64,000 nucleotides of DNA from a virus. Lineage: Duplodnaviria; Caudoviricetes. Made by a program: the position numbers and the translations under genes. The DNA is taken from IMG/VR virus record IMGVR_UViG_3300025715_000017, positions 25,718-89,717 of that record; one strand, 5' to 3'. The notes below the pieces were generated by a model. That model searched no databases. It was not told where the DNA came from and saw only the letters and a program-made list of their open reading frames with translations. Positions 43,897 to 63,888 of the stretch are shown piece after piece (position 1 is the stretch's first letter; each line of letters opens with the position of its first letter).

Positions 43897-44293
43897 AGCC
43901 TTTGCACATGCAACGCATACCAGTTATGATAAATTGGTGCGAGCAATAGATCACCCTGCGCCTTATCATATTCAGGAGATTATTGAAGTATTAAGTCGCA
44001 CTTTTAGCATTACAGAAGTTTCTTGTAATGATATTGACCCTACTTGTCCATATACTTCAGATAGATTAGGGGCATGGCTATCAGAATATTCTGGGGTAGT
44101 AGCCTACTGGACAAGAAAAGATTTTCAAGAGTGTCCTACTTGCGGTGCGGTATCATTTGAAAATGCTGCAATGCACGCAGTAGCGTATAATCATAAGAAT
44201 AAAACGATTCAAGAATCTGACGGTTCTTATAGTATACCGCGAAATGATTACACTATTTTTTGGATTATTCAACCTCGTCCTTTCGTGACTTGA
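43877..44293 (+). CDS. Hypothetical protein
   Basis: MDCLARAFAHAT...; stop codon lies in the -35 box of the downstream promoter. Confidence 0.5.
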   Translation, partial: TMDCLARAFAHATHTSYDKLVRAIDHPAPYHIQEIIEVLSRTFSITEVSCNDIDPTCPYTSDRLGAWLSEYSGVVAYWTRKDFQECPTCGAVSFENAAMHAVAYNHKNKTIQESDGSYSIPRNDYTIFWIIQPRPFVT

Positions 44294-44318
44294 CTTTTCA
44301 AATTTTTTATGCTATAAT
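44290..44318 (+). promoter_or_regulatory. Consensus sigma70-type promoter upstream of the sigma-like gene
   Basis: TTGACT-N17-TATAAT with extended TG. Confidence 0.85.
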
Positions 44319-44343
44319 AACAGCATAATTTGATTTTCCAAGT

Positions 44344-44392
44344 TTCTGATGGCAGACTTTTCTGATGGCAGAATTTTCTGATGGCAGACTTT
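44344..44392. promoter_or_regulatory. Three tandem 16-bp repeats (TCTGATGGCAGACTTT) carrying the CAGAAWWTTCTG palindrome
   Basis: CAGACTTTTCTG at 44353, CAGAATTTTCTG at 44369, half site at 44385. Confidence 0.75.
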
Positions 44393-44409
44393 AACAATGG
44401 AGGTTTGAA

Positions 44410-44997
44410 ATGGACGAAACTGTTAATAATGCGATTTTGGAGTATCGTTTGCTGGCAATTAATTATGCCAAGCGGTTCTCACGCAGTCTACTACACATGC
44501 GTGGGGATATGATCTCAGAGGCTCTACTAACTTTAACTATTGCAGCACATGAGCATCTGGATCACCCTAATTTTGAAGCATATTTACGTGTACGTTTACG
44601 CGGTGCTTTATTAGACATGTTGCGACGTCGTGAGAACAATGTTCCTTATGATGACATATCTTCATGCAATGATAATTACATGGACATGTATATGCGTGAA
44701 ATTGCAGCTTTGCAGTTTTTCAATCTCGAAGAATTACAGATAATCAAGATGCGTATAGATGGCTATACGGATCAAGAAATAGCTGAATCATTTGGTGTAT
44801 GGCCTTCGGCAATTAGGAAACGCCGTGTGGCAATATGCCAGAAAATTCTAACACAAGGAGAACAGTATGGATTTAACAGATGCAAAGAAAGCCTTCTTTC
44901 GAGAAAGCGCAGCAGTCGTCAATCAAGCGGACGGAATCCGTTTGGGCATACAAGTGATACAAGCACAGGATCAATTAATAAGGAAATTGCAAGATGA
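44410..44997 (+). CDS. Sigma70-family RNA polymerase sigma-like factor
   Basis: Region 2-like DMISEALLTL...FEAYLRVRLRGALLDMLRR; region 4 HTH YTDQEIAESFGV; GGAGG RBS. Confidence 0.75.
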   Translation: MDETVNNAILEYRLLAINYAKRFSRSLLHMRGDMISEALLTLTIAAHEHLDHPNFEAYLRVRLRGALLDMLRRRENNVPYDDISSCNDNYMDMYMREIAALQFFNLEELQIIKMRIDGYTDQEIAESFGVWPSAIRKRRVAICQKILTQGEQYGFNRCKESLLSRKRSSRQSSGRNPFGHTSDTSTGSINKEIAR

Positions 44998-45338
44998 ATT
45001 GGAAGGATACAAACGAAATAGCCAAGGCGATGCAAGTAACTCCAAGTCGGGTAAAGAAATGGAAAAGCCAACAATCAACCCCATCCTTGGCTGAAAGATT
45101 AATGCTTGGTGCGTTTCATGACTGTGATCCCGATGAGTTTATTAAACCAAAACTCATTAAGATGCGGAAAGTAGGCGATTTATGGAAAGCTAGCGTGTAT
45201 GGCTACAAAATATCTTTTACAAAAGGCATGGGCGCAATAGACGGTAAAGTTTTTGAAGGTAAGAAGTACCACCAAGAAATGGAAGAATATTTGAGGATCG
45301 CGTGTGGGCAAAAAATATTTATAGGTGTCGGCCTATGA
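44994..45338 (+). CDS. XRE/Cro-like HTH protein
   Basis: TNEIAKAMQVTPSRVKKWKS..STPS. Confidence 0.65.
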   Translation: MNWKDTNEIAKAMQVTPSRVKKWKSQQSTPSLAERLMLGAFHDCDPDEFIKPKLIKMRKVGDLWKASVYGYKISFTKGMGAIDGKVFEGKKYHQEMEEYLRIACGQKIFIGVGL

Positions 45339-45832
45339 ATGTGCTTATTGAATTTAACCTCATTTATCAGGTACGTGAACAATTTTTGAGATTTTGTGAA
45401 CTTGATGATCTCGAATGGCCTAAAGGTGAACCTGATTATTTCAAAGTCACGGGGTATGATCTTACGGAAGTACCTATTGATTTTTGGTATACGTTAAAAG
45501 CAACACCAGAAGCTGGCTCATTGATAAAAGCATTGGGCATGTTTGGAGGCTGCGTAAGCTCCACGATATGCACAATGACAGAGGCTATTAGTAAGTTTGA
45601 GATTTTCCACTCCATTGTTAGTTTCTGTGTACCTTTCATCCCTATACAGGGTATATTGAAAGCTGAGATGTTTCCGTCTAGTTTGACATTAATAGATGAT
45701 TCAGATGAAGAAATCGAAGCATGGAAAGGCCCAAAGCTTTTGATTCCCAAACCGTGGAATAGTGGAGTTGGTGATCCACAGGAGATGTTACATGAATTTC
45801 TTTCTCATGAAGGCCCAGCGCTTAAATCCTAA
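45335..45832 (+). CDS. HAD-superfamily 5'(3')-deoxyribonucleotidase-like protein, first motif degenerate
   Basis: FW..L..TPEA, LIDDS, IL.P.PWN-like LLIPKPWN; motif I reads IEFNLI. Confidence 0.55.
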   Translation: MNVLIEFNLIYQVREQFLRFCELDDLEWPKGEPDYFKVTGYDLTEVPIDFWYTLKATPEAGSLIKALGMFGGCVSSTICTMTEAISKFEIFHSIVSFCVPFIPIQGILKAEMFPSSLTLIDDSDEEIEAWKGPKLLIPKPWNSGVGDPQEMLHEFLSHEGPALKS

Positions 45833-46712
45833 AAGACTCATACCAGGAGTTACGAAATGGTCAATTAAGCTAGATGGCATGAGGGCTTTTTGGGACGGCG
45901 GGATCACTCGCGGTCGTACAGATGTACCTTTTGCAATGCATCAGAAGGCCACTGGCTTGTGGTCTATTAATGCCAAGGTCATCCACGCACCTGATTGGTG
46001 GCTAGATACTTTGCCTCAAGATATTTTCTTGGATGGTGAATTGTGGGCAGGTATTGGGCAATTCCAAAATGTCATGTCAATCTGTAAAAGGCATACACCA
46101 GATGAACGGTGGCTAAATATTCAGTTTCGAGTATTTGAATCACTTGTACCGAGAATTGTATATACTCCAAGAGTAATAGATCAACCCACGTGTTCTTTGA
46201 CAATAGATCATACTGTGCGTGATTACATGAAGAATCTTTGTCCCAATTGGGAAGTTGCTCCTGAAGTGAAAACAATAGAACAAAATGTCTTCACTTCTCT
46301 TGAAGATATACCTTTAGATGCATTATTGCTTGAGGGGCATGAAGGAATCATGTTCAGAAACCCCTCGAAATGGGAACCCACGAGATCATGGGGTATCATG
46401 AAACTGAAACCCTTTCTTGATGATGAAGCCAAAGTCATTGGGTATACTGGCGGTGATAAGGGTTTCACCGGAAAAATAGGTGCATTGATTGTCAACTGGA
46501 ATAACAAGTGGTTCAAAATATCATCGGGTTTGGATTACACAGATCGTGAAACTAATGACCCAGAAGAATGTGCAAAATATAGTGGAAAGGTATTGCCTAT
46601 GCATATTGAATCTTTAACTATTCCAAGAGATGCCATCATTACGTTCAAATATCGTGAACTAACTGATGAGGGTACACCAAAAGAAGCAAGATATTGGAGA
46701 AAAAGAATATGA
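45792..46712 (+). CDS. ATP-dependent DNA ligase (phage type)
   Basis: KLDGMRA, LDGELW, EGIMFR, MKLKP, GALIV; AGGAG RBS before 45792. Confidence 0.9.
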   Translation: MNFFLMKAQRLNPKRLIPGVTKWSIKLDGMRAFWDGGITRGRTDVPFAMHQKATGLWSINAKVIHAPDWWLDTLPQDIFLDGELWAGIGQFQNVMSICKRHTPDERWLNIQFRVFESLVPRIVYTPRVIDQPTCSLTIDHTVRDYMKNLCPNWEVAPEVKTIEQNVFTSLEDIPLDALLLEGHEGIMFRNPSKWEPTRSWGIMKLKPFLDDEAKVIGYTGGDKGFTGKIGALIVNWNNKWFKISSGLDYTDRETNDPEECAKYSGKVLPMHIESLTIPRDAIITFKYRELTDEGTPKEARYWRKRI

Positions 46713-46852
46713 CAGTTTTACAAGAAGACCTCATCACCGGGATAAGCTATATATTTTGTATTTGTGCAACGGAGGCCCTTGCCGAGACTTTTCAAAATAA
46801 CAATGATCCCTATCATGCTTACGTGATAGAAGAATGGGATGTTGAAACATGA
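46709..46852 (+). CDS. Small hypothetical protein (47 aa; not in the ORF track)
   Basis: ATGA overlaps at both ends; MTVLQEDLITGISYIFCICATEALAE. Confidence 0.6.
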   Translation: MTVLQEDLITGISYIFCICATEALAETFQNNNDPYHAYVIEEWDVET

Positions 46853-47184
46853 CTAAAAATGACCTAACGAACGGTATGGTGGTTGTAACATTGAATCGCA
46901 TCAAGTATTTAGTCTGTAAGACAGATAAAATATTCAGATTCATAGGCTTAGAGCGTGCTATTGATAGTAGTTGCTTTAGTGATGATTTACTACACCATGC
47001 AACTGGCGATTACGATATTATGGAAGTATATGAGCTTTCAAATAAATATACTCATCCACTTTCAATTATACTTAATTATGTTGAAGATTCTTGTTTATGC
47101 ATTTGGGAAAGGAAAGAAGTTAAAGAGATGACAGTGGCGGAAATTTCTGAAGCATTGGGCTATGAAGTGAAAGTGGTGAGATGA
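46849..47184 (+). CDS. Phage-type hypothetical protein
   Basis: MTKNDL.NGMVV...DIMEVY...WER.EVKEMTVAEI..ALGY.VK pattern. Confidence 0.65.
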   Translation: MTKNDLTNGMVVVTLNRIKYLVCKTDKIFRFIGLERAIDSSCFSDDLLHHATGDYDIMEVYELSNKYTHPLSIILNYVEDSCLCIWERKEVKEMTVAEISEALGYEVKVVR

Positions 47185-47600
47185 TTTATGCATGGAAAAG
47201 TTTACCCTATTTCATGCATTTTGGATACGGTGACAACCGACCCATTGAAATAGGCACAATTTATGAAGTTAGTTACCCCGCAATAGTTTGCGATTGGGGA
47301 TTTCATGCTTCTATTAAAGCCATTGATATGCTGACATGGGCACAAAGTGACATTGTTGCACGAGTTAAATGCTCAGGGCATATTGATTTCGGTGCTGATA
47401 AGCTTGCTTGCACAAAAATACAATGTACACACATATTTAATGCTAGGGCAGCATTTTCAAAATATGCAAATTTTGAAACTTACTTGCCTTTCGCTTTCAG
47501 AGAAGCTAAAGCGTATGCTTACAGGAACCGTTTACGGGATGAAGATCGCTTAGTACGATTATTAAGAAAGGATATGCGATGCTCACAAAAGAACAAATGA
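47181..47600 (+). CDS. Phage-type hypothetical protein
   Basis: YEV..P..C.WGFHAS....D.L...RV..SG pattern. Confidence 0.6.
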   Translation: MIYAWKSLPYFMHFGYGDNRPIEIGTIYEVSYPAIVCDWGFHASIKAIDMLTWAQSDIVARVKCSGHIDFGADKLACTKIQCTHIFNARAAFSKYANFETYLPFAFREAKAYAYRNRLRDEDRLVRLLRKDMRCSQKNK

Positions 47601-47752
47601 TCTTGGCGGAGATGCTGTATGAGGCTTGGCCAGAATCAAATGAAGGGACTTTTGATGAAGGCTTCGATTTCGCCGTGGAAGTAATCATTGATTTCTTGCA
47701 AAGAGATGAGATCATGGATACACAGCAATTCCGAAAGGTAGTAAATTGCTAA
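47579..47752 (+). CDS. Small hypothetical protein (57 aa; not in the ORF track)
   Basis: AAGGA RBS; fills the gap in the operon. Confidence 0.5.
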   Translation: MLTKEQMILAEMLYEAWPESNEGTFDEGFDFAVEVIIDFLQRDEIMDTQQFRKVVNC

Positions 47753-47943
47753 GAGAACTTAGAAAACGAAAAAATGAATTAAAGAAACTTATCGTAAAGA
47801 TGGAATATCAAGTAGCTTGCGATATTGGTAGACTTACTCATAATAAAGAAAGGGAGATACAATTTCGTGAAGAGCTAATAAGCATCGAAGGCAAGATCAA
47901 ATATCGTGAAAGGAAATTGAAAGATGCGTCTAAGAGTCATTGA
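47746..47943 (+). CDS. Small basic coiled-coil protein
   Basis: ORF overlapping its neighbours. Confidence 0.5.
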   Translation: MLRELRKRKNELKKLIVKMEYQVACDIGRLTHNKEREIQFREELISIEGKIKYRERKLKDASKSH

Positions 47944-51250: not shown

Positions 51251-51252
51251 CC

Positions 51253-51402: not shown

Positions 51403-52706
51403 ATTTAACTTATACCATAGCCACTGAAGAAATGGCGCCTTTGGCAGAAAGAACATTGGCGACATTTCCAAAGGATACGCTGGTTTTTCGTAGATTGATC
51501 TCGAAATACCAGCACTCCAAGTATATGTTTTTTCTGCTTTCAGAACTGGCAGAACAGTATCCACAAGCGGAAGTGTTTCAATATGCAGACAGTGATATCT
51601 TCATGCGTGGTGGTGACATTTTCGACCGTGATCTTAATTGCATTTGGATGCTCGACGAAGCAGAGTACCGACGTAACGGCAACTGGGCAGATCAATTCAA
51701 AGAAAAAATAGAAGAGCATACAGGCGAAGCCGTGAATTGGACTAGGCATTGGTGGAATCCAGGTGTGTCAATAATCCCAAGACAATTCGCTAAGTATTTC
51801 GTAATGCCGCCTTGGGATGTCAATACACATTTATGGAATACACGAAGTGGCAAAGACATTGTAAAGAATATGCCATATATTAATTGGCTTATTGCTAAGC
51901 ATGGCTTGCCTATTCGTGATCTCACACCTTATTGGAATTGCATGGATCCTTTACGCTCGCCATTCGCAAAGGAGGCAAATTACTGGCATTTAACGCAGAA
52001 CGAGCATTTCAACGCTTATGCGAAATTGAACATATTGAAACGTTTGGAGATGCCTTGGCAGCCCAAAGCTTGTTTAGTTACTGTAGTTATTGGTGAAGCT
52101 TTTGAAGAACTTGCAAAATACACCTTGCTTTTAATGGAAGAAGCAGCGAGGCGTTGGAATATGGATTTCAAAGTCGTAAGGAGAAATAAAAGATACCCTT
52201 CACCATCATTTTGTAAACTCGAATATCCAAAGGATTATGATGTTTATGTATTTGCAGATTGCGACATGATGATCTTACCAGAATGCCCTAATCCTATAGA
52301 TTATGTGCCACAAGGTAAATTTGGGGCATTCAATAGCCTAACCCTTGATTACATGCGAGCAGAGACAGCAAGTTGGAGAACTTCATTCAAAGAGTGGTCA
52401 GATCGTGCCGGGTATGCCATTCCTGAAAGTATGCCTTACTATATCAACGGTGGCTTTTTCGTTTGCTGGAAAGAGTGCAAGCACATTCTGAATGTGCCTC
52501 CAATTGATCTCGACGGGTACTTCGAGCAGCACGGTTTGAATCATAATCTTTGGCGTGACGATGTTTATTTCGAAATGGATCGCAAATGGAACTGGGGTCA
52601 CTTGCATATCAATGACAACACTGAAGGTGCTTATATAGTACATCTCAATGGTGTACCTTTGGATCAACGTATAGACTATTTTAGAAAGGTAATGAAAAAT
52701 GACTGA
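51399..52706 (+). CDS. Glycosyltransferase with two tandem GT8-like (GT-A) domains
   Basis: YADSDIF and FADCDMM (DxD), WWNPGVS, YINGG, KWN, IVHLNG; N-domain paralogous to 21639. Confidence 0.8.
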   Translation: MNLTYTIATEEMAPLAERTLATFPKDTLVFRRLISKYQHSKYMFFLLSELAEQYPQAEVFQYADSDIFMRGGDIFDRDLNCIWMLDEAEYRRNGNWADQFKEKIEEHTGEAVNWTRHWWNPGVSIIPRQFAKYFVMPPWDVNTHLWNTRSGKDIVKNMPYINWLIAKHGLPIRDLTPYWNCMDPLRSPFAKEANYWHLTQNEHFNAYAKLNILKRLEMPWQPKACLVTVVIGEAFEELAKYTLLLMEEAARRWNMDFKVVRRNKRYPSPSFCKLEYPKDYDVYVFADCDMMILPECPNPIDYVPQGKFGAFNSLTLDYMRAETASWRTSFKEWSDRAGYAIPESMPYYINGGFFVCWKECKHILNVPPIDLDGYFEQHGLNHNLWRDDVYFEMDRKWNWGHLHINDNTEGAYIVHLNGVPLDQRIDYFRKVMKND

Positions 52707-53103
52707 AGCACGTGCGTACTTGGCGAAGATGATGGCTAATTGCACTGTACCGGAAGTATCAATTGCCATCAATTGCAGAGCAGATCAACTTTACAGTTGG
52801 TTACGAGGCAAGCATAAAATCTACACAAAACATGCCAGAAGTCTTGCCAGATATTTCAATGTCGGCCCTGAGAATTTCCTCGATGAGTGGTATGAACTTG
52901 ACCCGGCAGACACTTCTTTTGGCACTGAACTACGGCGTGAACGTTTGAGAATGGGGATGTCCCTTAGAGAGATGTCTTATCGTATTGGTTATGCTGACAA
53001 AACAATATGCAATTGGGAACACAATCAGATCAAAGAGAAAAAGCAAGAATATGTGTGGACACTTGTGCAACTGGTTAAAAAAGATCTGCCAGAGGTATTT
53101 TAA
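52699..53103 (+). CDS. Tandem XRE-family HTH regulator
   Basis: QLYSWLRG..; LRRERLRMGMSLREMSYRIGYADKTICNWE. Confidence 0.75.
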   Translation: MTEARAYLAKMMANCTVPEVSIAINCRADQLYSWLRGKHKIYTKHARSLARYFNVGPENFLDEWYELDPADTSFGTELRRERLRMGMSLREMSYRIGYADKTICNWEHNQIKEKKQEYVWTLVQLVKKDLPEVF

Positions 53104-54012
53104 ATGATCCAATTTGAAAGTAGATTGAAAGCATTAAGTCCAACTTCATTGAAGTGCTTTGAAACAAGTGTTGATACTTTCGTTTGCCGCTATGTCTTGG
53201 AGATACCAAGGCCACCGCAAACGAAACCTATGAGCATAGGATCAGCCTTCGATGCCAGAATCAAAGCATATATTGCTCAGAAAATTCTGGGGGTAGAAGA
53301 CTGGTTTGAGAATTTGTTTGAAGCACAGGTCGAGCCAGCTTTTCGTGATTGGGCATTTGCAGAATCTGAAAATGTATTCAATGATTATGTGAATGCTGGT
53401 TGTGCTGATGATCTCATTAGAGAAATAGGTGACTCCATAGCCTTGAGAATGGAATTCGAGCAATTCAAATCCTTGAAATATGAAGATGGTTTTGAAGTCC
53501 CATTATATGGAAAACCAGATGCTTATTTCATGCGCCGCGATGGTTTACAAATAGTTATTGACTGGAAAGTTAATGGCTATTGTTCACAAGCTTCTCCTGC
53601 TGCTGGGTATGTACGCCTCATTGACAAAGAGGGTTATGATCTCGGTTCACACCGTTATGCTTTTCCTATCCTCTACAAAGGTATATCTTGTGCCACTGGT
53701 GAAATACCTTTGCAATGGCGAGATCAGATTAGAATGTATTCTTGGATGCTTGGTGAAGATAATAATGATTGGGTGGCAGGAATAGATCAATTAGCTTATC
53801 GTAATGGCATTCCACGATATGCCATTCACAGGATACGCTTAACAAATGATGATTTGGAATTACGTAAACGTATACGGTTGGCTTGGGAAGCAATTTCCAC
53901 AGGTCATTATTATTATGATCGCTCACTTGAAGAATCAAATATGCGTATTGAGTTACTAAAAGATAACAGAGTCATGAGAGAATGTTTACTTGACTTTAGA
54001 GGATTTCGTTGA
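53104..54012 (+). CDS. PD-(D/E)xK nuclease (RecB/Cas4-like exonuclease)
   Basis: LSPTSL, GSAFD, GKPD, VIDWK, QIRMY. Confidence 0.8.
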   Translation: MIQFESRLKALSPTSLKCFETSVDTFVCRYVLEIPRPPQTKPMSIGSAFDARIKAYIAQKILGVEDWFENLFEAQVEPAFRDWAFAESENVFNDYVNAGCADDLIREIGDSIALRMEFEQFKSLKYEDGFEVPLYGKPDAYFMRRDGLQIVIDWKVNGYCSQASPAAGYVRLIDKEGYDLGSHRYAFPILYKGISCATGEIPLQWRDQIRMYSWMLGEDNNDWVAGIDQLAYRNGIPRYAIHRIRLTNDDLELRKRIRLAWEAISTGHYYYDRSLEESNMRIELLKDNRVMRECLLDFRGFR

Positions 54013-55024: not shown

Positions 55025-55065
55025 ATATTCTGAGCCTTGCCGATAGGCGGCAAGGCTCAGAATAT
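55025..55065. repeat. Perfect 18-bp inverted repeat with 5-nt loop
   Basis: ATATTCTGAGCCTTGCCG-ATAGG-CGGCAAGGCTCAGAATAT. Confidence 0.85.
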
Positions 55066-55079
55066 TCTGGAGAGCAACC

Positions 55080-55365
55080 ATGAAAGCAAAAAGAATCATG
55101 AAAATACCTTTAAGCTGGATTATCAACCCACCGTCTCCTTATGCTGTTGATCCTCACCGAAATGTTAAAGTCATCCGAATATGCACCTATACCCGTTATA
55201 AAGATCAGTAGTGAAGGGTATGCATTGTTAGGTGGCTTTACAAAACATGCCATTGCACATAAAATAGGCTTAACTGAAATTAATGTGTCTGTAGAAAAAG
55301 AATCAATGTCAATTTACAATAAAGCAGTTTGTATCTTTAAGAGACTTGCATATCTTGACTTTTGA
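55080..55365 (+). pseudogene. Frameshifted duplicate of 55462-55785 (degenerate ParB-like domain)
   Basis: Lacks the 17 nt ACCACTTCACTTAATAT of the intact copy at junction 55151/55152; premature TAG at 55209-55211. Confidence 0.8.
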
Positions 55366-55383
55366 AATTTTTTGTGCTATAAT
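55355..55383 (+). promoter_or_regulatory. Sigma70-type cassette promoter
   Basis: TTGACT-N17-TATAAT, extended TG. Confidence 0.85.
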
Positions 55384-55461
55384 AGTACTAGAAAATTGAG
55401 AAAGCAAGCCTTGCCGATAGGCGGCAAGGTGAAGCATCTCAGAAAATTCTGGAGAGCAACT

Positions 55462-55785
55462 ATGAAAGCAAAAAGAACCATGAAAATACCTTTAAGCTGG
55501 ATTATCAACCCACCGTCTCCTTATAATGTTGATACCACTTCACTTAATATCCTCACCGAAATGTTAAAGTCATCCGAATATGCACCTATACCTGTTGTGC
55601 AGATTAGTAGTGAAGGGTATGCACTATTAGGTGACTTCATAAAATATGCTATCGCCCACAAAATAGGCTTAACTGAAATTAATGTGTCTGTAAAAAAAGA
55701 ATTAATAGACATTGTATCAGTTTATAATGATGCAGTTTGTAATCTAACTGAAGCTTTAAGAGACTTACACGACCTTGACTTTTGA
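55462..55785 (+). CDS. Degenerate ParB-N-like domain protein
   Basis: IPLSWI...L.EML...P.PV....YALLGDF.K.AIA.K.GL.EI.V; lacks the GxxR motif. Confidence 0.55.
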   Translation: MKAKRTMKIPLSWIINPPSPYNVDTTSLNILTEMLKSSEYAPIPVVQISSEGYALLGDFIKYAIAHKIGLTEINVSVKKELIDIVSVYNDAVCNLTEALRDLHDLDF

Positions 55786-55803
55786 AATTTTTTGTGCTAT
55801 ACT
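55775..55803 (+). promoter_or_regulatory. Sigma70-type cassette promoter
   Basis: TTGACT-N17-TATACT, extended TG. Confidence 0.8.
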
Positions 55804-55865
55804 ATTAGTAAGAAAGCAAAGTTTGCCGATAGGCGGCAAACCTCAGAAAATTCTGGAGAGTAACC

Positions 55866-56120
55866 ATGTTAATTGAATTAAACACTATCGTAAATCCAGC
55901 CACACAGATTAATATTAAAGAACATGAATATTTAGCAACAATATTAAAAAATGGAACTTACATGCCTTTTGAGGTAGTCCAGCTAAATAGTGGATACTAT
56001 GCTTTACTTTGTGACTTTGAAATACATGCTGTGGCCCATAGTTTAAGATTAAAATACGTTGAAGCTAATATTCATCTTATTGATTATAAGGCAAGCAATT
56101 TCAATTATAGAAGATCTTGA
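55866..56120 (+). CDS. Third degenerate ParB-N-like paralog
   Basis: PFEVVQLNSGYYALLCDF..HAVA..L.L..VEA aligns with 55462. Confidence 0.55.
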   Translation: MLIELNTIVNPATQINIKEHEYLATILKNGTYMPFEVVQLNSGYYALLCDFEIHAVAHSLRLKYVEANIHLIDYKASNFNYRRS

Positions 56121-56145
56121 CTTTCGAAACCTTTTGTGCTATAAT
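56117..56145 (+). promoter_or_regulatory. Sigma70-type cassette promoter
   Basis: TTGACT-N17-TATAAT, extended TG. Confidence 0.85.
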
Positions 56146-56197
56146 AGTATTAGAAAATTGATTGGCAGCAAGTCTCAGAAAATTCTGGAGCAAAAGA

Positions 56198-56683
56198 ATG
56201 AATCAAGCATTATTCACAAGCAAAAAAGATGAATGGGAAACACCGCAAGAACTTTTCGAGCAACTGCATCAGAAATTTCTGTTCACATTAGACCCGTGTT
56301 GTGATGAGAGCAACGCTAAATGTGAACAGTATTTCACGAAAGAAGATGATGGCCTGATCCAGTCATGGGCAGGCCATTGCGTGTTCATGAACCCACCTTA
56401 TGGGCGAAGCATTGGGAAGTGGATGCAAAAAGCCTATGAAGAATTCTTGAACGGGACAACAGTGGTATGTCTCGTACCCGCACGAACAGACACTATTTGG
56501 TGGCACGAGTATGCCACAAAAGGGCAGGTTATATTTCTGCGTGGACGTCTCAAATTCGGGGGAAGTAAAAACAGTGCGCCTTTCCCAAGTGCCGTAGTGG
56601 TATTTCAACCTCAGAATATTCTGATACGTTGGGCCATTCGTTACCGTCTCATTAACAACTTTCACAGGAGAATTGTATTATGA
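56198..56683 (+). CDS. Phage N6-adenine DNA methyltransferase
   Basis: DEWETPQ, FTLDPC, VFMNPPYG, LVPARTDT.WW, F.RGRLKFG. Confidence 0.9.
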   Translation: MNQALFTSKKDEWETPQELFEQLHQKFLFTLDPCCDESNAKCEQYFTKEDDGLIQSWAGHCVFMNPPYGRSIGKWMQKAYEEFLNGTTVVCLVPARTDTIWWHEYATKGQVIFLRGRLKFGGSKNSAPFPSAVVVFQPQNILIRWAIRYRLINNFHRRIVL

Positions 56684-56975: not shown

Positions 56976-57004
56976 TTAACAAAAAGAAGATTTTGTGATA
57001 TAAT
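56976..57004 (+). promoter_or_regulatory. Sigma70-type cassette promoter
   Basis: TTAACA-N17-TATAAT, extended TG. Confidence 0.7.
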
Positions 57005-57081
57005 AGTATTAGAAAATTGAGAGAGCAAAGTTTGCTGAAGGCAGCAGGCAAAGCCTCTCAGAATATTCTGGAGGTAGCAGC

Positions 57082-57285: not shown

Positions 57286-57557
57286 TCTTCCATGACGGTT
57301 ACATATGGCTACCTGACGGGAATGTTGAAGTGCATGTAGAAAGAACGGATGTACTTGAGGGTTTTCGTGGTTTAAGTATCTTTGACGGCTTTCCCATAGC
57401 ATTATTGCCTATTGAAAGGAGAGGTGTGATGCTAGTTGTCAATGAGAATATTCCGTATGCACGAGATGATCTCGTATATCCGTGTTACAGTGATGGCAAG
57501 GTAGTAGGTTTCCAAAAGTATGAAAGTAAATATGTAGGAGTGCAACAGTATGGATAA
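57255..57557 (+). CDS. Hypothetical protein (start uncertain)
   Basis: ORF bridging two neighbours. Confidence 0.5.
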   Translation: MLENWTGRSLIFHDGYIWLPDGNVEVHVERTDVLEGFRGLSIFDGFPIALLPIERRGVMLVVNENIPYARDDLVYPCYSDGKVVGFQKYESKYVGVQQYG

Positions 57558-57783
57558 GGCACAAACGTTGGATAAGGCACAAACGTTGGATAAGGCAACT
57601 GCACAAAGAATGGCGTTAAACTTGTACGCTGAGTTGAAAACAAGCAAGCCTCGTGACCGTTATAAGAAGCATCTGCGCGAATTGTGCGCAAAGTACAAAC
57701 AAGTGTATATTGATGCCATGATACAAGAGCATGGTATTGATAAAGTCAGGGCAAAGTGCCCATCATTAGTCAGAAAATTCTGA
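57550..57783 (+). CDS. Small protein with an 18-bp tandem repeat at its N-terminus
   Basis: GGATAAGGCACAAACGTT x2.5 encoding DKAQTL repeats; AGGAG RBS. Confidence 0.55.
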   Translation: MDKAQTLDKAQTLDKATAQRMALNLYAELKTSKPRDRYKKHLRELCAKYKQVYIDAMIQEHGIDKVRAKCPSLVRKF

Positions 57784-57803: not shown

Positions 57804-58805
57804 ATGAACGTTAATGAAGTAATGAATGAAGATGTAGAAGTAGTAGAAGCAGGGATCGATGTGGATGTTGAGGAAAACCTGTCATACTATGAACTCGATG
57901 AGGTGGACTTTTCGGATCAATGGAACATCCGGCGTCCCGACAAGTATGAAGAGCGGGTCGATCGCAAAATGCAAGAATTGTTGACGGATTTGTATATCCG
58001 TACACCACTGGAAGTGGCGCAAGTATTGGATGCTGATGAAGTTTTGCGTGGTGTCAAAGGTTTCATCCGCCATCGGGCATTGTGCCGTATCCGAGATGAA
58101 AAGCCCGAAATTTATAGTGAGTATTTTGAGGGCAAAGTGCCGTACACATTGGTGCTTTGCACGGAAGAGCAGCGTGAACGGCTCATGTTGGATCATGGTT
58201 CGGAAGAACTTTTGGATGAGTACGAGCTACTCCTTGCCGTTCAGAAATTTCTGAAGCGTGGCTACACCCAAAAGAAGATCGCCGTGATCTTGTCGCCACT
58301 ATTTTACCAGTTGGCAGACATCAAAAGCAAACGGGAATACAATACCCGTATTCGCACGTTTCATGAGACGGGGCACTTCGAGAAAGCTTACGAGCTGGGT
58401 GAAATTCAGCTGGCGTACTGGCGTCGCCGGATTCAATATTACAAGCGAATCATCGAAGGTGGCCCGCTGTGTATTCAGGCATTCAAGGATTCCGTGGATG
58501 GCAAACGCCCACGTATCACGCAGAAACAGGCGGAGCAGATTCAGGAAGCAGTTGGCGATACCCTGAAAATGCAAGAGCTCATCGAAACCAAAGAATCGGA
58601 AAAGAACCCCGCCAGTCGTGGCATGGGCCGTGCAAAGCTGGTGCAATACCGGAAGATTTGCCATAGCACTTACATTCAGAAGATTCTGGATGTGATCCTC
58701 GGTGAGTTGGCGCAAGAAGCGCTGGAGCCGATTGAAGAGGAATTGATGAAGATTGAAGCGGCTCAGAAGGATGGAAACTTCTGGGAGAAATTGAACAATG
58801 TATAA
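57804..58805 (+). CDS. Divergent ParB-family protein
   Basis: WNIR...PLEV...VKGFIRHRAL, LLMLDH-like helix, HTH-like YTQKKIA; AAGGAG RBS. Confidence 0.6.
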   Translation: MNVNEVMNEDVEVVEAGIDVDVEENLSYYELDEVDFSDQWNIRRPDKYEERVDRKMQELLTDLYIRTPLEVAQVLDADEVLRGVKGFIRHRALCRIRDEKPEIYSEYFEGKVPYTLVLCTEEQRERLMLDHGSEELLDEYELLLAVQKFLKRGYTQKKIAVILSPLFYQLADIKSKREYNTRIRTFHETGHFEKAYELGEIQLAYWRRRIQYYKRIIEGGPLCIQAFKDSVDGKRPRITQKQAEQIQEAVGDTLKMQELIETKESEKNPASRGMGRAKLVQYRKICHSTYIQKILDVILGELAQEALEPIEEELMKIEAAQKDGNFWEKLNNV

Positions 58806-59048: not shown

Positions 59049-59078
59049 GTAGCGGGGTGATTCATGTCACCCCGCTAC
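59049..59078 (+). terminator. GC-rich hairpin
   Basis: GTAGCGGGGTGA-TTCATG-TCACCCCGCTAC, 12-bp stem; no clear T tract. Confidence 0.5.
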
Positions 59079-59136
59079 CACCCTTCTGAAATTAGAGTAC
59101 CATACACCTCAGAAAATTCTGATAGGAGAATGAATC

Positions 59137-59634
59137 ATGAATTGGAATGAAGCTCGCGAATTGGATGTATTACCAGAAGAATGGCTAAACTTGAGCGAGG
59201 CGGACCTCTGCGGGGCCGATCTGAGCGGAGCGGACTTGCGCGAGGCCAACTTGAGCGGGGCCAACTTGTACGAGGCCGACTTGCGCGAGGCCGACCTGAA
59301 CGGGGCCGACTTGCGTGGGGCCGACTTGTACGGGGCCAACTTGCATGGGGCCGACTTGTACGGGGCCAACTTGCGTGGGGCCAACTTGAGTAAGGCCAAC
59401 TTGCATGGGGCCGACTTGCGAGGGGCCGACTTGCGCGGGGCGAATCTCGACTTTTCAAATTGGTCACTCTGGTGCGGCTCGCTGAACGTAAAGGTAGACA
59501 AAAAACTAACGGCACAGCTGGCGTATCATTTTTGTACGCTGGACTGTGATGATCCTGAATATCTAGCCGCACGGAATGCTGTCATAGGTTTTGCAAACCA
59601 AATGCACCGAAACGACGTGCCGCGTTTACAATAA
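59137..59634 (+). CDS. Pentapeptide-repeat protein
   Basis: A(D/N)LxG repeats, then the common phage tail LDFS.W.LWCGS....D..L.AQL.YH. Confidence 0.9.
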   Translation: MNWNEARELDVLPEEWLNLSEADLCGADLSGADLREANLSGANLYEADLREADLNGADLRGADLYGANLHGADLYGANLRGANLSKANLHGADLRGADLRGANLDFSNWSLWCGSLNVKVDKKLTAQLAYHFCTLDCDDPEYLAARNAVIGFANQMHRNDVPRLQ

Positions 59635-59685
59635 GAGTGGAACGTCTCAGAAAATTCTGATAGGCTAAAACAAGGAGAATGAATC

Positions 59686-59799
59686 ATGAAAAAATATTAT
59701 TATGAAAAATATATAAAGATTAATTGGCCAGAATATTCTGAAAGTAAAATGCAGAAACTTCACACTTGGGCATATGGGGTTTATTGCATTGGCTCTTGA
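59686..59799 (+). CDS. Small hypothetical protein (37 aa; not in the ORF track)
   Basis: AAGGAGAATGAATC-ATG context identical to its neighbours; stop lies in TTGACT. Confidence 0.5.
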   Translation: MKKYYYEKYIKINWPEYSESKMQKLHTWAYGVYCIGS

Positions 59800-59817
59800 C
59801 TTTTGACGTCTTATAAT
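59789..59817 (+). promoter_or_regulatory. Cassette promoter, short-spacer variant
   Basis: TATAAT at 59812; TTGACT only 10 nt upstream, TTGGCT at 17 nt. Confidence 0.6.
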
Positions 59818-59899
59818 AGTATTAGAAAATTGAGAGAGAGAGCAAAGCAACGGGCAGAGCCTCTCAGAATATTCTGGCCCAAAACAAGGAGAATGAATC

Positions 59900-60217
59900 A
59901 TGTACAATCTTGCGAAAAAATTAATGCTCATGGATGAGGGATGGAAAGCCCTTGAAGACCATTTACGACGGGATTATTATTTCCGTTATGAAAAGCATGT
60001 ATATGCACTCACAATACGTGTCACACCCATGTATAAGGAACTAATTCTTACGAGAACATATTGTTATATTAGTGGTGACACACTCACAGAAGAAATGTGT
60101 AACGCCATTTTGGGTGATGATGATGGGTGGCTATTATGCTATGGGCAGGGCCTGTCTTTTGATCCTGCGAAAATTGAGCCTATATCCGAAAGAGAGTATT
60201 GGAGTTTTGTGATATAG
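59900..60217 (+). CDS. Hypothetical protein
   Basis: Cassette RBS AAGGAG. Confidence 0.65.
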   Translation: MYNLAKKLMLMDEGWKALEDHLRRDYYFRYEKHVYALTIRVTPMYKELILTRTYCYISGDTLTEEMCNAILGDDDGWLLCYGQGLSFDPAKIEPISEREYWSFVI

Positions 60218-60308
60218 TATTAGTATAGAAAGTGAGACGAAATCATCGGTAAAGACTGATGGGAAACGTCTCAGAATATTCTGGCCCGATGGGCCGAAAG
60301 GAGAATGT

Positions 60309-60818
60309 ATGAGCCATTTCGCAGTGTTGGTTTTCGTAAGACCGGAGAATCAGAGATTTCTAGGGTCTACCGTTGAAAATGTACTAGGACGGTATGACGA
60401 GAATTTAGAAACGGAACAAGTTTGTGACTGTGTTGCTCTGTGTGAGCTAGATCATTGTGTTAAACCTGATCCAGAATGTCTATACTGCCAAGGTACAGGA
60501 GTTAGCCATTTCAATCCCGATGGCAAATGGGACTGGTGGCGTATAGGTGGTAGGTATGATGGCTGGATCACCGATACAGAAGTTTCTGGAGATGGATTCA
60601 ACTTCTCACATGAACATGAGTCTTTGAAGTTAAACTCCCGCCCTGTGGCGGAATTACTCGATAAAATACCATGTGCCATCGTCACACCTGATGGTGAGTG
60701 GTATGAGAATCCTGATCCTTGGGGCGATGATTCAACTGGTGAATGGGATGATGAAGTACATGCTCTTTATAAACAATATCAGGATTGCATTGCAGTTTGT
60801 GTGGACTGCCATGTCTAG
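60309..60818 (+). CDS. Phage-type hypothetical protein with Zn-finger insert
   Basis: MSHF.VLV...YDEN...NP.GKWDWW.IGGR..AIVTPDGEW. Confidence 0.7.
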   Translation: MSHFAVLVFVRPENQRFLGSTVENVLGRYDENLETEQVCDCVALCELDHCVKPDPECLYCQGTGVSHFNPDGKWDWWRIGGRYDGWITDTEVSGDGFNFSHEHESLKLNSRPVAELLDKIPCAIVTPDGEWYENPDPWGDDSTGEWDDEVHALYKQYQDCIAVCVDCHV

Positions 60819-60926
60819 AAAATTCTGAACCAGTTGGCTTGATGAGTGGGTCGCCAATGGGTGACTCACTTCAGAAAATTCTGATTCAAAGGCATAAAGG
60901 TGCAATGCACCAAGGAAAACTGAAAC

Positions 60927-61682
60927 ATGAGAACGAAAGTGCAGACACGAAAAAATGGTGAACGGTATTGTGCATACATCGGACTTCCGCCCGAACATCC
61001 GTTGCACGGAAAATATCCCGATAGGGATGCTTTCCCTGACATAGTGGATTGGACGTATGCTGGATTAGGCTTAGCAGGGAATCAGCCCACAGGCTATTGG
61101 TGGATAGGTTGGGATTCACCTGATCCTATTGATCCTGAACCAGTTGAGTTGGTGATTGATAATCTCTTGTATACCGAATTGGTTACATTACGACGGTGGA
61201 TTGCGGAGCAACGCGATTTCGCGTATGACTACGCCATGTATGAACCGTACTTGGACTGGTTTCTCGTGACGGGGCGTCATCGAGATTCGGAAATACTGGA
61301 TCGGGCAAATTGGGACGCCATCTTGAATCAGTTAGGCGGAGAAGGCGAGCATTGTGCTATCTTTCGACATGGGCATTGGGCAGTGGGCTGGTCGGAGGTC
61401 ATGGTTTCTGACTTAGGCGGAGAGGTTCAGAAAATTCTGGACTCACTTGCTGATTATCCCGTGTTGGATGATGAACTGTATTCCGAGATGGAAAGTGATG
61501 AAGCCTATTCGGGATGGCTGGACTATGGCGCAGATGACTGGCTGCGCGATACCGATTTTGATTCGGAAGGACTGCGGGATGACTGGAAAGATGTCGTGTG
61601 GGGATATGCGCGATATGAGTGTACGGGATCAGGTTTCAACTATGACGTGGATGACTTTGATCCCGCATTACTTTACACTTGA
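60927..61682 (+). CDS. Hypothetical protein, apparent fusion of two phage modules
   Basis: CAYIGLP.EHPLHG module plus HRDS.IL.R.NW...HWAVGW...L.DYPVLDD module. Confidence 0.65.
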   Translation: MRTKVQTRKNGERYCAYIGLPPEHPLHGKYPDRDAFPDIVDWTYAGLGLAGNQPTGYWWIGWDSPDPIDPEPVELVIDNLLYTELVTLRRWIAEQRDFAYDYAMYEPYLDWFLVTGRHRDSEILDRANWDAILNQLGGEGEHCAIFRHGHWAVGWSEVMVSDLGGEVQKILDSLADYPVLDDELYSEMESDEAYSGWLDYGADDWLRDTDFDSEGLRDDWKDVVWGYARYECTGSGFNYDVDDFDPALLYT

Positions 61683-61700
61683 CTTTTGACGTCTTATAAT
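61672..61700 (+). promoter_or_regulatory. Cassette promoter, short-spacer variant
   Basis: TTTACA-N17-TATAAT, with the TTGACT box only 10 nt from the -10. Confidence 0.7.
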
Positions 61701-61791
61701 ATTAGTATAGAAAGTGAGACGAACACTGTGATACAGCGTCATGGGAAACGTCTCAGAATATTCTGGCCCGATGGGCCGAAAAGGAGAATGT

Positions 61792-61995
61792 ATGAAGATT
61801 CATGAAAGTATTACAATGGAACGTCTGGAAGATGCCATTCGGCGTGAAGCTGAATGGTGCGAAAATCCAGGATTTTGTATTGCTTGTGGCGCGGACGCAG
61901 ATGGCTGTGAACCTGATGCAGAACGCTATGAGTGTGAGGAATGCGGTAAACATGCGGTCTATGGGCTCATGTACATTGCCATGATGATGATGTAG
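61792..61995 (+). CDS. Small Zn-binding phage-type protein
   Basis: GFCIACG...GCEPDA.RYECEECG..AVYG. Confidence 0.75.
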   Translation: MKIHESITMERLEDAIRREAEWCENPGFCIACGADADGCEPDAERYECEECGKHAVYGLMYIAMMMM

Positions 61996-62000
61996 TTTCC

Positions 62001-62030
62001 AAGCCCGCTGTCCTTCGGGATGGCGGGCTT
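62001..62030 (+). terminator. UUCG-tetraloop intrinsic terminator overlapping the next -35 box
   Basis: AAGCCCGCTGTCC-TTCG-GGATGGCGGGCTT with two G.U pairs. Confidence 0.75.
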
Positions 62031-62057
62031 GACTTTTGACGTGTTTTATGATATAAT
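62029..62057 (+). promoter_or_regulatory. Sigma70-type cassette promoter
   Basis: TTGACT-N17-TATAAT, extended TG. Confidence 0.85.
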
Positions 62058-62150
62058 ATAAGTATAATTGAGAGAGCAAAACTTGCTGATAGGCAGCAGG
62101 CGGAGCCTCAGAATATTCTGGCCCATCGGGCCAAACAAGGAGAATGTAGA

Positions 62151-62492
62151 ATGACGAAAATGTGTTTGGCAAGCTCTAGCCTTACTGAGCAGAAACCGGT
62201 GCATGTGACGGTATATACATGCGGTCACGCGACAGTCAATCACTTTGTATATGATTGTCGAGTGATTGAATCCGACAATCGGTGCGTGCAGTGTGATGCC
62301 GCACCGTGGTTGGATCTGGCGAAATGGCTTGCTCCCCATGCATTAGGCATGGAAGGCGAGTGGGAACTCGCACCTGGTGTGCGCTTGGTGGCCTTTGTAA
62401 ATTACCATGATGGCCAAGTCTTTGAAGTTAGCCATGACGTTTTGCTGGACGTGCCAGCGGGGCGTATGCGACTTGATTATCGTCGTTTTTGA
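62151..62492 (+). CDS. Hypothetical protein
   Basis: Cassette RBS AAGGAG. Confidence 0.65.
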   Translation: MTKMCLASSSLTEQKPVHVTVYTCGHATVNHFVYDCRVIESDNRCVQCDAAPWLDLAKWLAPHALGMEGEWELAPGVRLVAFVNYHDGQVFEVSHDVLLDVPAGRMRLDYRRF

Positions 62493-62502
62493 TTCTTTTT
62501 TC

Positions 62503-62532
62503 AAGCCCGCTGTCCTTCGGGATGGCGGGCTT
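62503..62532 (+). terminator. UUCG-tetraloop hairpin, identical to 62001-62030
   Basis: Exact repeat. Confidence 0.7.
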
Positions 62533-62628
62533 GACGTCTTATAATAGTATTAGAAAATTGAGAGAGCAAAGCAGCAGGCAAAGCCCCTCAGAATATTCTG
62601 GCCCGATGGGCCAAAAGGAGAATGAATC

Positions 62629-63204
62629 ATGATTAGAATACGTATTGAAGCTTACCTTACATCTTATAAGTGGGTGATGTGGGTAAGTGCGACCCACCCA
62701 CTGTATGGTCTTCAGGCTATGGACTTGGTGCTTAATGATTGGCTGCGGACAGTCATTGGACATACAGGTATGCTTAAAGACCTGTCTCCATTATATGGTG
62801 GAGAAATGGATCAGGGGTGGTGGCGATTTGAAACCGCCAATACTACGCCGGAGGAGGCACGGAAAATAGGGAATTGGTTACAGGGCATGGAAAATAATCC
62901 CGTGATTGATATGCACGTATACGAGAAGATGTGCGTGTTCTTGGATGCTCTTTGGAATGATCCCAAAGGATACCCATTTGTTGATGGGATTATCACTGCT
63001 GAATTCTGCGGGGATGATCCTAACATATACAAGATTGTTCTGGATACAAGGGAAGTTGCTCCCCTGTGTCAGATTTTTCTGAGATTACTTGACCCTGATG
63101 ATTCAGATTTCGTGAAGATCTGGGAAGCAGATCGAATTGATGGTGTGTGGACGCCTTGGTGGGGCAATCTCACGCCGTACCCCGATATCCTTCGGGGCAT
63201 CTAA
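62629..63204 (+). CDS. Hypothetical protein
   Basis: Cassette RBS AAGGAG. Confidence 0.65.
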   Translation: MIRIRIEAYLTSYKWVMWVSATHPLYGLQAMDLVLNDWLRTVIGHTGMLKDLSPLYGGEMDQGWWRFETANTTPEEARKIGNWLQGMENNPVIDMHVYEKMCVFLDALWNDPKGYPFVDGIITAEFCGDDPNIYKIVLDTREVAPLCQIFLRLLDPDDSDFVKIWEADRIDGVWTPWWGNLTPYPDILRGI

Positions 63205-63210
63205 TATTCT

Positions 63211-63266
63211 AGCCCGCTATCCTTCGGGATGGTGGACTTGACTTTTGACGTGTTTTATGATATAAT
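63211..63266 (+). promoter_or_regulatory. Variant UUCG hairpin (63211-63238) fused to a sigma70 promoter (63238-63266)
   Basis: AGCCCGCTATCC-TTCG-GGATGGTGGACT then TTGACT-N17-TATAAT. Confidence 0.8.
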
Positions 63267-63346
63267 ATTAGTATAGAAAGTGAGACGAACACTGTGATAC
63301 AGCGTCATGGTGAACGTCTCAGAAAATTCCAATAGGAGAGTGTAGA

Positions 63347-63685
63347 ATGAACAAGTTCGAAAGGTTGGTTGGAGAGATGATAGAAGAAGATATGAATACT
63401 GATTCTCTTCTTGAAGAATTGCGCGTACGTGGTTACGATGCGCGTTTAGTCGGGCGTAGGGTCGTTGGATCTACCGAGAATCGCTTTTCGGCGGTTCCAC
63501 ATGGCATGGATGATCCAGGCATATTTGACATGCCTGTATACGAGGTGGTAATCGCATTTTATTGCGGCCCCATATTAGTAGAATCTGTACGCCTTCGTGA
63601 AGAAACGTACTGGTTCGGGGGATACCACAGCGGATGGGAACGCTGTAATTTGTCATTGTGGCGGCCAAAACCGATATTAAGTTGA
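63347..63685 (+). CDS. Hypothetical protein
   Basis: AGGAG RBS; last cassette ORF. Confidence 0.6.
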   Translation: MNKFERLVGEMIEEDMNTDSLLEELRVRGYDARLVGRRVVGSTENRFSAVPHGMDDPGIFDMPVYEVVIAFYCGPILVESVRLREETYWFGGYHSGWERCNLSLWRPKPILS

Positions 63686-63690
63686 CTTTT

Positions 63691-63725
63691 GCCCGCTGTC
63701 CTTCGGGATGGCGGGCTATTTTTTT
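63691..63725 (+). terminator. UUCG-tetraloop intrinsic terminator
   Basis: GCCCGCTGTCC-TTCG-GGATGGCGGGC followed by TATTTTTTT. Confidence 0.85.
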
Positions 63726-63856
63726 GCCAACCAGATATGAAAGTGATTCATGTGAACGACTTGTCATGATTTGTGAATTTGGGGTAGGATCCTGCCAACC
63801 AGATATGAAAGTGATTCATGTGAACGACTTGTCATGATTTGTGAATTTGGGGTAGG
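63725..63856. repeat. Exact 64-bp direct repeat x2 separated by 4 nt
   Basis: 63725-63788 = 63793-63856. Confidence 0.9.
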
Positions 63857-63888
63857 GGGCCGGGTCAGAATATTCTGACGCCTGGCGT

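Follow-up and report, generated by a model that had tools for sequence, protein, structure and literature searches.

The right-hand end of a 64,000-nucleotide stretch of virus DNA (the window; Caudoviricetes, positions 25718 to 89717 of the IMG/VR record IMGVR_UViG_3300025715_000017) carries 23 exact copies of the 12-bp palindrome CAGAAWWTTCTG. This repeat is real and under selection, and comparison with related sequences suggests that it is probably, though by no means certainly, the double-stranded DNA operator of one phage-encoded dimeric regulator which controls the whole early gene block. The record is a single contig of 89,717 bp, labelled 'linear' and 83% complete according to CheckV. 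A first-pass annotation, made from the letters of the window, had listed 23 coordinates for the palindrome, and an exact match was found at each of them. Its interpretation, namely that a phage protein coats or silences the early region through these sites, is partly supported by the data described below; the 'coating' is pure inference.

Dinucleotide-preserving shuffles give an expectation of 0.03 copies and a maximum of one, in agreement with the earlier estimate that chance would provide well below one copy. All 23 copies are located within the last 20 kb of the record, in the block of early genes. A scan of the whole record, including the 25.7 kb outside the window, detected no exact copy elsewhere and therefore the first 69.8 kb are empty; the absence of copies left of 44 kb had been noticed before, and an even genome-wide distribution of the motif is not the case. 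Nine sites with one mismatch exist in the record, seven of them inside the same 21 kb, and sites with two mismatches occur at background level genome-wide. Among the near-matches proposed earlier, those at 44353 and 60816 stand, CAGAAGATTCTG starts at 58677 instead of 58676, and CAGAAAATTCCA at 63320 has two mismatches. Additional near-matches are present at 44839, 60577 and 63070.

The central dinucleotide of the copies is TA (11), AA (9), AT (2) or TT (1). Directly adjoining bases at -1 and +1 are T and R (A in 8 cases, G in 13), so that the palindrome is extended to a 14-bp core T-CAGAAWWTTCTG-R; relatives have 13- and 14-bp forms. Around 16 of the 23 copies are found in 5′ leaders or intercistronic gaps, 10-56 nt ahead of a start codon, and 15 end at most 60 nt upstream of one. 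Genes without a promoter of their own are also preceded by a copy (57771, 59110, 59648, 60872 and 56612). At least seven copies are situated inside open reading frames (ORFs), as had been reported (44082, 53278, 56270, 56612, 57771, 58242 and 61428). Copies that are not leader sites comprise the intragenic ones at 44082, 53278, 56270, 58242 and 61428, one upstream of a promoter (59729) and one in terminal non-coding DNA (63866). Around this last copy the symmetry extends, as described earlier, to the perfect 16-bp palindrome GTCAGAATATTCTGAC (63864-63879).

The phage is novel, with few PHROG matches (primase, helicase, DNA polymerase and ParB). Among deposited phages, megablast gave no hit and blastn only short ones to the Dam and pentapeptide-repeat genes, while tblastn led to distant Thermus phage hits only for the DNA polymerase and to none for the sigma factor. 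Scans of IMG/VR with single proteins revealed no relatives, and a pattern scan of the same database for the motif plus a Shine-Dalgarno (SD) sequence yielded 32 single-copy chance hits only. Relatives were obtained as metagenomic contigs (L033-L055) via homologues, in a protein collection, of the sigma factor and of a 333-amino-acid (aa) protein, both encoded in the last 20 kb.

Relatives with CAGAA...TTCTG arms share the same cassette architecture and have these arms at the same places, with one spacer length per genome, as predicted by a co-evolving trans-acting factor. The 2-nt spacer is found in this phage and its 95-99% identical relatives L039-L041. Sites with a 3-nt spacer are 6+1+6 palindromes and have the form CAGAAA-W-TTTCTG in L033 (11 copies) and L048, two contigs of one metagenome-assembled genome, or CAGAAT-S-ATTCTG in L038 and L050 (15 copies in the latter). 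The 4-nt spacer form CAGAAAATTTTCTG is the one used in L034-L037 and L046, with 8 copies in L034/L035. Distant members of the 333-aa family are encoded by phages with the same leader layout and other dispersed palindromes: TCCCAATTGGGA in L053, with 12 copies of (T)CCCAATTGGG(A) that mostly overlap the SD sequence, ATCG-NN-CGAT in L054 (19 copies, five of them containing the start codon), and TTGTAA-NN-TTACAA in L055 (5-6 copies, in leaders).

This distribution bears on the idea that the phage exploits the site of a global host regulator, for example one of the CodY type. A Firmicutes-like host is suggested by the strong SD sequences and the promoters with TG-extended -10 boxes, and the AA-centred site presumably corresponds to the core C-W-GAAAATT-C-W-G that overlapping pairs of CodY boxes have in common in Firmicutes. 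A site that has exclusively 2-, 3- or 4-nt spacers in close relatives and wholly different arms in other lineages would not be followed by an orthologous host factor. In addition, the flanks do not fit the 15-bp CodY consensus and TA is the commonest centre. We consider the host regulator the least credible of the explanations weighed here, and a CodY-type site was rejected on account of the lineage-specific spacing.

Selection on the site is evident from the about 95%-identical contig L039, where the ten arm positions show 1 mismatch in 180, compared to 74 in 2052 for the flanks. At two intragenic positions, amino-acid replacements have restored the site with the spacing typical of the respective lineage, showing that the nucleotides are under selection. 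The C-terminus of the Dam-like protein is encoded here by CCT CAG AAT ATT CTG (PQNIL, 2-nt spacer), in L033 by GCC AGA AAT TTT CTG (ARNFL, 3-nt spacer) and in L034 by TCA GAA AAT TTT CTG (SENFL, 4-nt spacer), and these spacer types differ without any insertion or deletion. In the gene upstream of the sigma factor, SEYSG with a 2-nt spacer corresponds to QKFSG with a 3-nt spacer in L048, where the position homologous to 44082 has become CAGAAATTTTCTG through the SEY to QKF replacements. The copy at 58242 (coding for QKFL) is probably kept by coding descent, as the identical 12-mer occurs in the 4-nt-spacer phages L034-L037.

Further observations concern individual relatives. The central TGA of CAGAAT-G-ATTCTG serves as the stop codon of three upstream genes in L050 (1737, 2877 and 3746), and in L033 two genes (3842 and 4331) stop at a TGA made up of the last bases of the site and a following A. 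L044 has a 74% identical sigma factor, and two tandem promoters and no palindrome are present in the leader of its gene; the coding-embedded 12-mer homologous to 44082 is still present. An assignment of the near-site at 58677 as the homologue of the relatives' FW-site was wrong, since the FW position here has a 9-nt spacer.

The right end consists of about a dozen small cassettes. Their order is a strong, near-consensus TTGACT-N17-TATAAT promoter of the host sigma-A type (often TG-extended), a leader of about 45-90 nt with a hairpin, the palindrome, a strong SD sequence and a small ORF. Several cassettes contain a second small hairpin, GGCCCGATGGGCC, and sometimes an intrinsic terminator follows. 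In eight cassettes, including the sigma-factor operon, the site starts 30-56 nt past the -10 box, and in five its last G is the first base of the SD sequence. The stems of the leader hairpins differ in sequence among cassettes and keep their pairing (covariation). Sites, promoters and genes of possible regulators, including proteins with a helix-turn-helix (HTH), are located as follows.

44082-44093: site in ORF 43847-44293, about 200 bp upstream of the sigma promoter
44290-44318, plus strand: promoter of the sigma-factor operon, sigma-A type TTGACT-N17-TATAAT with TG
44337-44396: leader of the sigma gene with a 16-bp-period array CAGACTTTTCTGATGG / CAGAATTTTCTGATGG / CAGAC.., comprising one exact site (44369) and one to two near-sites (44353)
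44410-44997, plus strand: phage sigma factor gene, 195 aa (Pfam Sigma70_r2, E 2.9e-6; homologues in L044, L046 and L048)
44994-45338, plus strand: gene of a 114-aa weak-HTH protein, co-transcribed with the sigma gene and coupled to it in translation; ranks second among the candidate readers
52699-53103, plus strand: gene of a 134-aa protein that has two XRE-type HTH domains in tandem; ranks third among the candidate readers
53278-53289: site in the PD-(D/E)XK nuclease gene 53104-54012, conserved in L039
55058-55069: leader site 10 nt before ATG 55080, its last G opening the SD sequence GGAG
55355-55451, plus strand: cassette with promoter 55355-55383, leader hairpin, site 55440-55451, SD sequence and ATG 55462
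55775-55855, plus strand: cassette with promoter 55775-55803, leader hairpin, site 55844-55855 and ATG 55866
56117-56187, plus strand: cassette with promoter 56117-56145, site 56176-56187 and ATG 56198 of the Dam-like methyltransferase
56270-56281: site within the Dam-like gene
56612-56623: site at the 3′ end of the Dam-like gene, CAG AAT ATT CTG (QNIL), 56 nt before ATG 56680
56976-57070, plus strand: cassette with promoter 56976-57004, leader hairpin, site 57059-57070 and ATG 57082; the operon includes the ParB-like gene
57771-57782: site without promoter ahead of the ParB/KorB-like gene, 21 nt from its ATG, overlapping the last codons of ORF 57550-57783
57804-58805, plus strand: gene of the 333-aa protein with a predicted ParB/KorB/Noc fold; best candidate reader
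58242-58253: copy within the ParB-like gene, coding for QKFL
59110-59121: leader site behind a terminator-like hairpin, 15 nt ahead of ATG 59137 of the pentapeptide-repeat gene
59648-59659: intercistronic site behind gene 59137-59634
59729-59740: site upstream of promoter 59789-59817, 48 nt from its -35 box
59789-59876, plus strand: cassette with promoter 59789-59817, leader, site 59865-59876 and ATG 59900
60272-60283: leader site followed by hairpin GGCCCGATGGGCC and SD sequence, 25 nt before ATG 60309
60816-60883: near-site TAGAAAATTCTG (60816) and exact site 60872-60883, before ATG 60927
61428-61439: site within gene 60927-61682
61672-61765, plus strand: cassette with promoter 61672-61700, leader hairpin, site 61754-61765 and ATG 61792
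62029-62120, plus strand: terminator, then cassette with promoter 62029-62057, leader hairpin, site 62109-62120 and ATG 62151
62589-62600: leader site 28 nt before ATG 62629; the promoter spacer is shortened
63238-63331, plus strand: cassette with promoter 63238-63266 and the degenerate site CAGAAAATTCCA (63320)
63864-63879: terminal palindrome GTCAGAATATTCTGAC past the intrinsic terminator of the last gene, adjoining 36-bp tandem repeats and conserved in L039

Leader hairpins were seen, for example, at 55390-55440, 57010-57059, 61705-61754 and 62065-62109, where GAGAG or GAGACG in the 5′ leader can pair with CUCUC or CGUCUC right before the site. Pairing between AUAUUCU of the site and AGAAUGU at the SD sequence is also possible in some cassettes. 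The early cargo includes a pentapeptide-repeat protein (59137-59634, Pfam E 6e-40) that might mimic DNA, and a Dam-like N6-adenine methyltransferase (56198-56683); both are typical of host takeover or anti-defence. At 63880-64000 the contig ends in at least three tandem copies of the 36-bp unit GTAGTGCCCTACTTGCCTATGCAGGTATGCCGGCCG, preceded by two direct repeats of about 75 bp (around 63745-63860). The independent metagenomic contig L039 breaks in the same 36-bp repeats, and the DNA may physically end here, the repeats may be a pac or iteron region, or the assembly may have broken off. At the other side, a giant ORF of the virion block (123-9701) runs off the left edge of the window and contains InlB B-repeat, Listeria-Bacteroides repeat, beta-propeller and GLUG domains. 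A role of the palindrome as promoter of a phage RNA polymerase was rejected, since this ORF is adhesin-like and no virion RNA polymerase, and the phage encodes a sigma factor; the two-barrel motif DxDGD is absent from all large ORFs.

The array also shows signs of cassette exchange. Its content differs from that of the about 95%-identical L039, for instance by extra pentapeptide-repeat copies, and ORF 55080-55211 (43 aa) duplicates gene 55462-55785 in truncated form and has a leader and a site of its own, together spanning 55058-55211. Sites on both sides of ORFs, sometimes overlapping stop codons, were found in L033 and L050. Palindromes and promoter-leader frames could delimit the cassettes and favour the acquisition, loss and exchange of early ORFs, either by passive homology or through nicking by a ParB/Srx-fold nuclease. 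A precedent for the former are the PeSL elements of T4-type phages, in which repeated early-promoter and stem-loop frames likewise flank small variable ORFs (PMC2839356, PMC4122927), and the varying cassette content of near-identical phages is a further likeness. In contrast to the sites described here, PeSLs are defined by promoter and terminator and not by a short invariant palindrome with lineage-specific spacing; the likeness concerns the cassette context and not the 12-bp motif. Moreover, a 12-bp core is too short for homologous recombination, for which the longer promoter-leader repeats suffice, no recombinase was found, neither integrase nor resolvase, and the intragenic type-adapted and promoter-overlapping copies would be left unexplained. 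We therefore regard a recombination signal as very improbable, the shuffling being possibly a side effect of the repeats.

If the sites are operators, the protein encoded at 57804-58805 is the likeliest candidate for their reader, judging from its modelled structure and from the sites that flank its gene in every lineage. This 333-aa protein has no match in Pfam, PHROG or among PDB sequences. An assignment to ParB at the sequence level failed, and its ParB likeness comes from fold comparison only. For the AlphaFold2 model (pLDDT 80.7), the top of the Foldseek list contains only ParB, Spo0J, Noc and KorB structures (6sdk, 7bnk, 1vz0, 7ng0 and 8qa9; E 5e-4 to 6e-3), and the alignment of about 240 columns comprises both the N-domain and the HTH. 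The earlier naming of this protein as ParB-like was thus right. Its gene is the conserved core of the array across lineages. In L033, L034, L050, L053, L054 and L055 a site of the respective own type precedes the gene of this family, and often another one follows. Family alignments show that the putative HTH TQKKIAVILSPLFYQLAD is nearly invariant among phages with CAGAA arms and different in lineages with other arms. A simple match between recognition helix and arms did not hold: L054 has a similar helix (APLYYQ) and different arms (GATCG), and consequently a naive helix assignment does not predict specificity. Co-variation of the site consensus with the candidate reader across lineages is only suggestive. 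The family has a box III-like segment (EEQRERL). The canonical ParB_N genes at 32737 and 37349, also named as candidates in the first-pass annotation, have no site nearby.

Whether the palindrome is read in DNA or in RNA is best judged from the relatives. In L048, one site is located 2 nt upstream of a -35 box and another starts 5 nt past a -10 box, overlapping the transcription start, so that its left arm may not be transcribed from that promoter. Promoters in L033, L046 and L050 are enclosed between two sites, the first 8-35 nt upstream of the -35 box and the second in the leader. Even the copy at 63866, located behind a terminator, is conserved. Furthermore, odd-length sites within one phage have their central base in either orientation, with 9 A to 2 T in L033 and mostly T in L048, and the symmetry extends through the centre (AATT, TA). 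Within one genome the sequence itself is invariant, beyond what mere pairing requires, and wobble-compatible changes of the sense strand are not in excess among the one-mismatch variants (4-7 versus 4). The first-pass annotation had favoured a DNA element over an untranslated-region (UTR) element because of the intragenic copies. This reasoning does not carry far, since most copies are in 5′ UTRs and the one at 58242 is probably kept by coding descent, but better evidence for the same view is given by the promoter-abutting sites, the two orientations of the odd centre and the re-created spacing in coding sequence.

Several findings weigh against a DNA operator read by the 333-aa protein. Most copies are transcribed 5′-UTR sequences between two covarying hairpins, just before the SD sequence, irrespective of whether a promoter is present. 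RNA hairpins of -3 to -8 kcal/mol are possible, and the T/R flanks are asymmetric as DNA and compatible with U-A or U.G pairs. The distance of 30-56 nt between site and promoter is variable. In L053 the palindrome overlaps the SD sequence and in L054 the start codon, where control at the level of translation fits as well as the explanation that only this non-coding space was available. As to the candidate, its box II reads GFIRHRA instead of GERRxRA, and the family consensus G-F-[IL]-R-x-x-A lacks the E and the first R, which makes KorB-like clamping by cytidine triphosphate (CTP) doubtful. Other DNA-binding candidates exist (44994, 52699, 37349 and 32737). Finally, all relatives have many genes in common, and co-occurrence therefore does not single out the reader.

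Some of these points suit an RNA-level element, that is, a short hairpin or tag upstream of the ribosome-binding site (RBS) in early mRNAs. It would be recognized by a phage or host RNA-binding protein or an endoribonuclease and would govern translation repression, transcript processing or mRNA stability gene by gene. The preference for leaders and gaps, which includes the promoterless genes listed above, and the flanking covarying hairpins are in line with this, as are the T...R flank pattern and the thermodynamic feasibility of hairpins. The same applies to the last G that starts the SD sequence in five cassettes, to the right arm that can sometimes pair with AGAAUG at the SD sequence, to the copies 4-10 nt before the SD sequence in almost every gene of L050, and to the palindromes that include the SD sequence (L053) or start codon (L054). 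However, sites that abut or precede -35 boxes or overlap a transcription start in L048, and the one beyond the terminator at 63866, are not expected for an RNA element. Compensatory stems within one genome were seen only in the small mixed contig L042, spacers of 0-2 nt make poor loops, and symmetry through the centre is needless for a loop. The lack of an excess of wobble-compatible changes and the two orientations of odd centres argue in the same direction, and no Rfam match was obtained in 43-64 kb at E <= 1. With regard to leader operators of the RegA or boxB kind, the leader position near the RBS is found here and strand-specific constraints are not. Two further lines of RNA evidence were dropped: the orientation bias of the centres (AA 9 to TT 1, AAT 9 to 2, TGA 13 to 2) collapsed with the mostly opposite centre in L048, which belongs to the same phage, and U.G pairing of the flanks fails in L050, the flanks of which are not complementary. 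Altogether, we judge an RNA-level element unlikely, although clearly less so than the recombination or host-factor explanations, and a dual role of the palindrome in DNA and RNA is possible. Compact phage genomes offer little non-coding space besides short leaders. The stoperators of Cluster A mycobacteriophages are likewise found in short intergenic spaces (PMC9283540).

For the operator reading, the closest known system by analogy would be KorB with its OB operators on the IncP-1 plasmid RK2. The OB operator has the sequence TTTAGC-S-GCTAAA, and the odd-length sites of the relatives (6+1+6, central W or S) are built in the same way. ParB-family proteins read palindromes of 13-16 bp, and KorB represses promoters both from OB sites adjoining the -35 box and from distant ones (PMC11790492). 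Like RK2, the phage has many copies of a short palindrome on one mobile element, and sites in this group immediately precede -35 boxes, follow promoters or are remote from any promoter. The element also encodes a candidate with a predicted ParB N-domain and HTH fold, and a site precedes its gene. Unlike in RK2, the sites form an early-gene array of a phage instead of being spread over a plasmid backbone, most of them are in transcribed leaders, and the half-site spacing varies between close relatives. The 333-aa protein has a degenerate CTP-binding box II and no sequence-level similarity to KorB. A search of the 83%-complete record for a ParA/IncC partner gave no PF13614 match, and no KorA-like partner was identified. 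Hence, of the features that mark a ParB/KorB network, the copy number of the palindrome, a ParB-fold gene next to a site and sites at or near promoters are present, and an intact box II and a ParA-type partner are not.

The closest phage analogue of dispersed lineage-specific sites appears to be the operators and stoperators of Cluster A mycobacteriophages (L5, Bxb1). Their site consensus differs between related phages and tracks the phage's own repressor (PMC6550527, PMC9283540). Both systems have more than 20 sites, which serve one phage protein in Cluster A and are found in promoters and short intergenic spaces, and a roadblock to elongation would be a plausible action for promoterless copies. 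In contrast, stoperators are asymmetric 13-mers, read by a monomer in an orientation-dependent manner, distributed over the whole genome and connected with lysogenic immunity, whereas the sites described here are palindromes, have an odd central base in both orientations and are confined to 20 kb of early genes. The comparison with KorB operators and stoperators, already drawn in the first-pass annotation, thus holds in layout, i.e. dispersed sites, restricted here to the early block, for one lineage-specific factor.

On this basis we infer that the sites act at the DNA level, and the following course of repression and its timing is proposed. Host RNA polymerase would fire the cassette promoters early in infection. 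The candidate reader encoded in the array would then accumulate and occupy sites in leaders, between cistrons and near promoters, and would shut off the cassettes and the sigma operon, its own operon included. At promoter-proximal sites, initiation or promoter escape might be hindered, and intercistronic sites might act as roadblocks. Meanwhile, the sigma factor would redirect the polymerase to later genes. We put forward only tentatively, and with less confidence than the operator function itself, that a lytic phage times the shut-off of its early cassettes and of its own sigma factor by a partner-less, probably CTP-independent ParB-fold protein. This protein would recognize a short palindrome positioned at promoter and RBS of each individual gene, and specificity would be encoded in a half-site spacing of 2, 3 or 4 nt or, in distant lineages, in the arms. 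If this is true, the code shifts between close relatives fast enough to enter coding sequence by amino-acid replacement and would constitute an immunity-like barrier to cross-regulation in co-infection.

Phage ParB-like proteins without ParA are very common and mostly unexplained. New in the locus described here are how densely the sites are packed, their association with consensus host promoters and with the gene of a sigma factor, and a half-site spacing that changes between close relatives. With 23 sites, about a dozen consensus promoters and a sigma factor under the same motif, sites and candidate reader form an unusually clear and dense pair that lends itself to testing. The re-creation of sites in coding sequence is direct evidence for selection on a regulatory DNA word inside genes. 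The spacer variants of 2, 3 and 4 nt and the other arms could show how a DNA-binding dimer changes its half-site spacing over short evolutionary distances, and the system as a whole could show how a lytic phage turns off its host-takeover genes.

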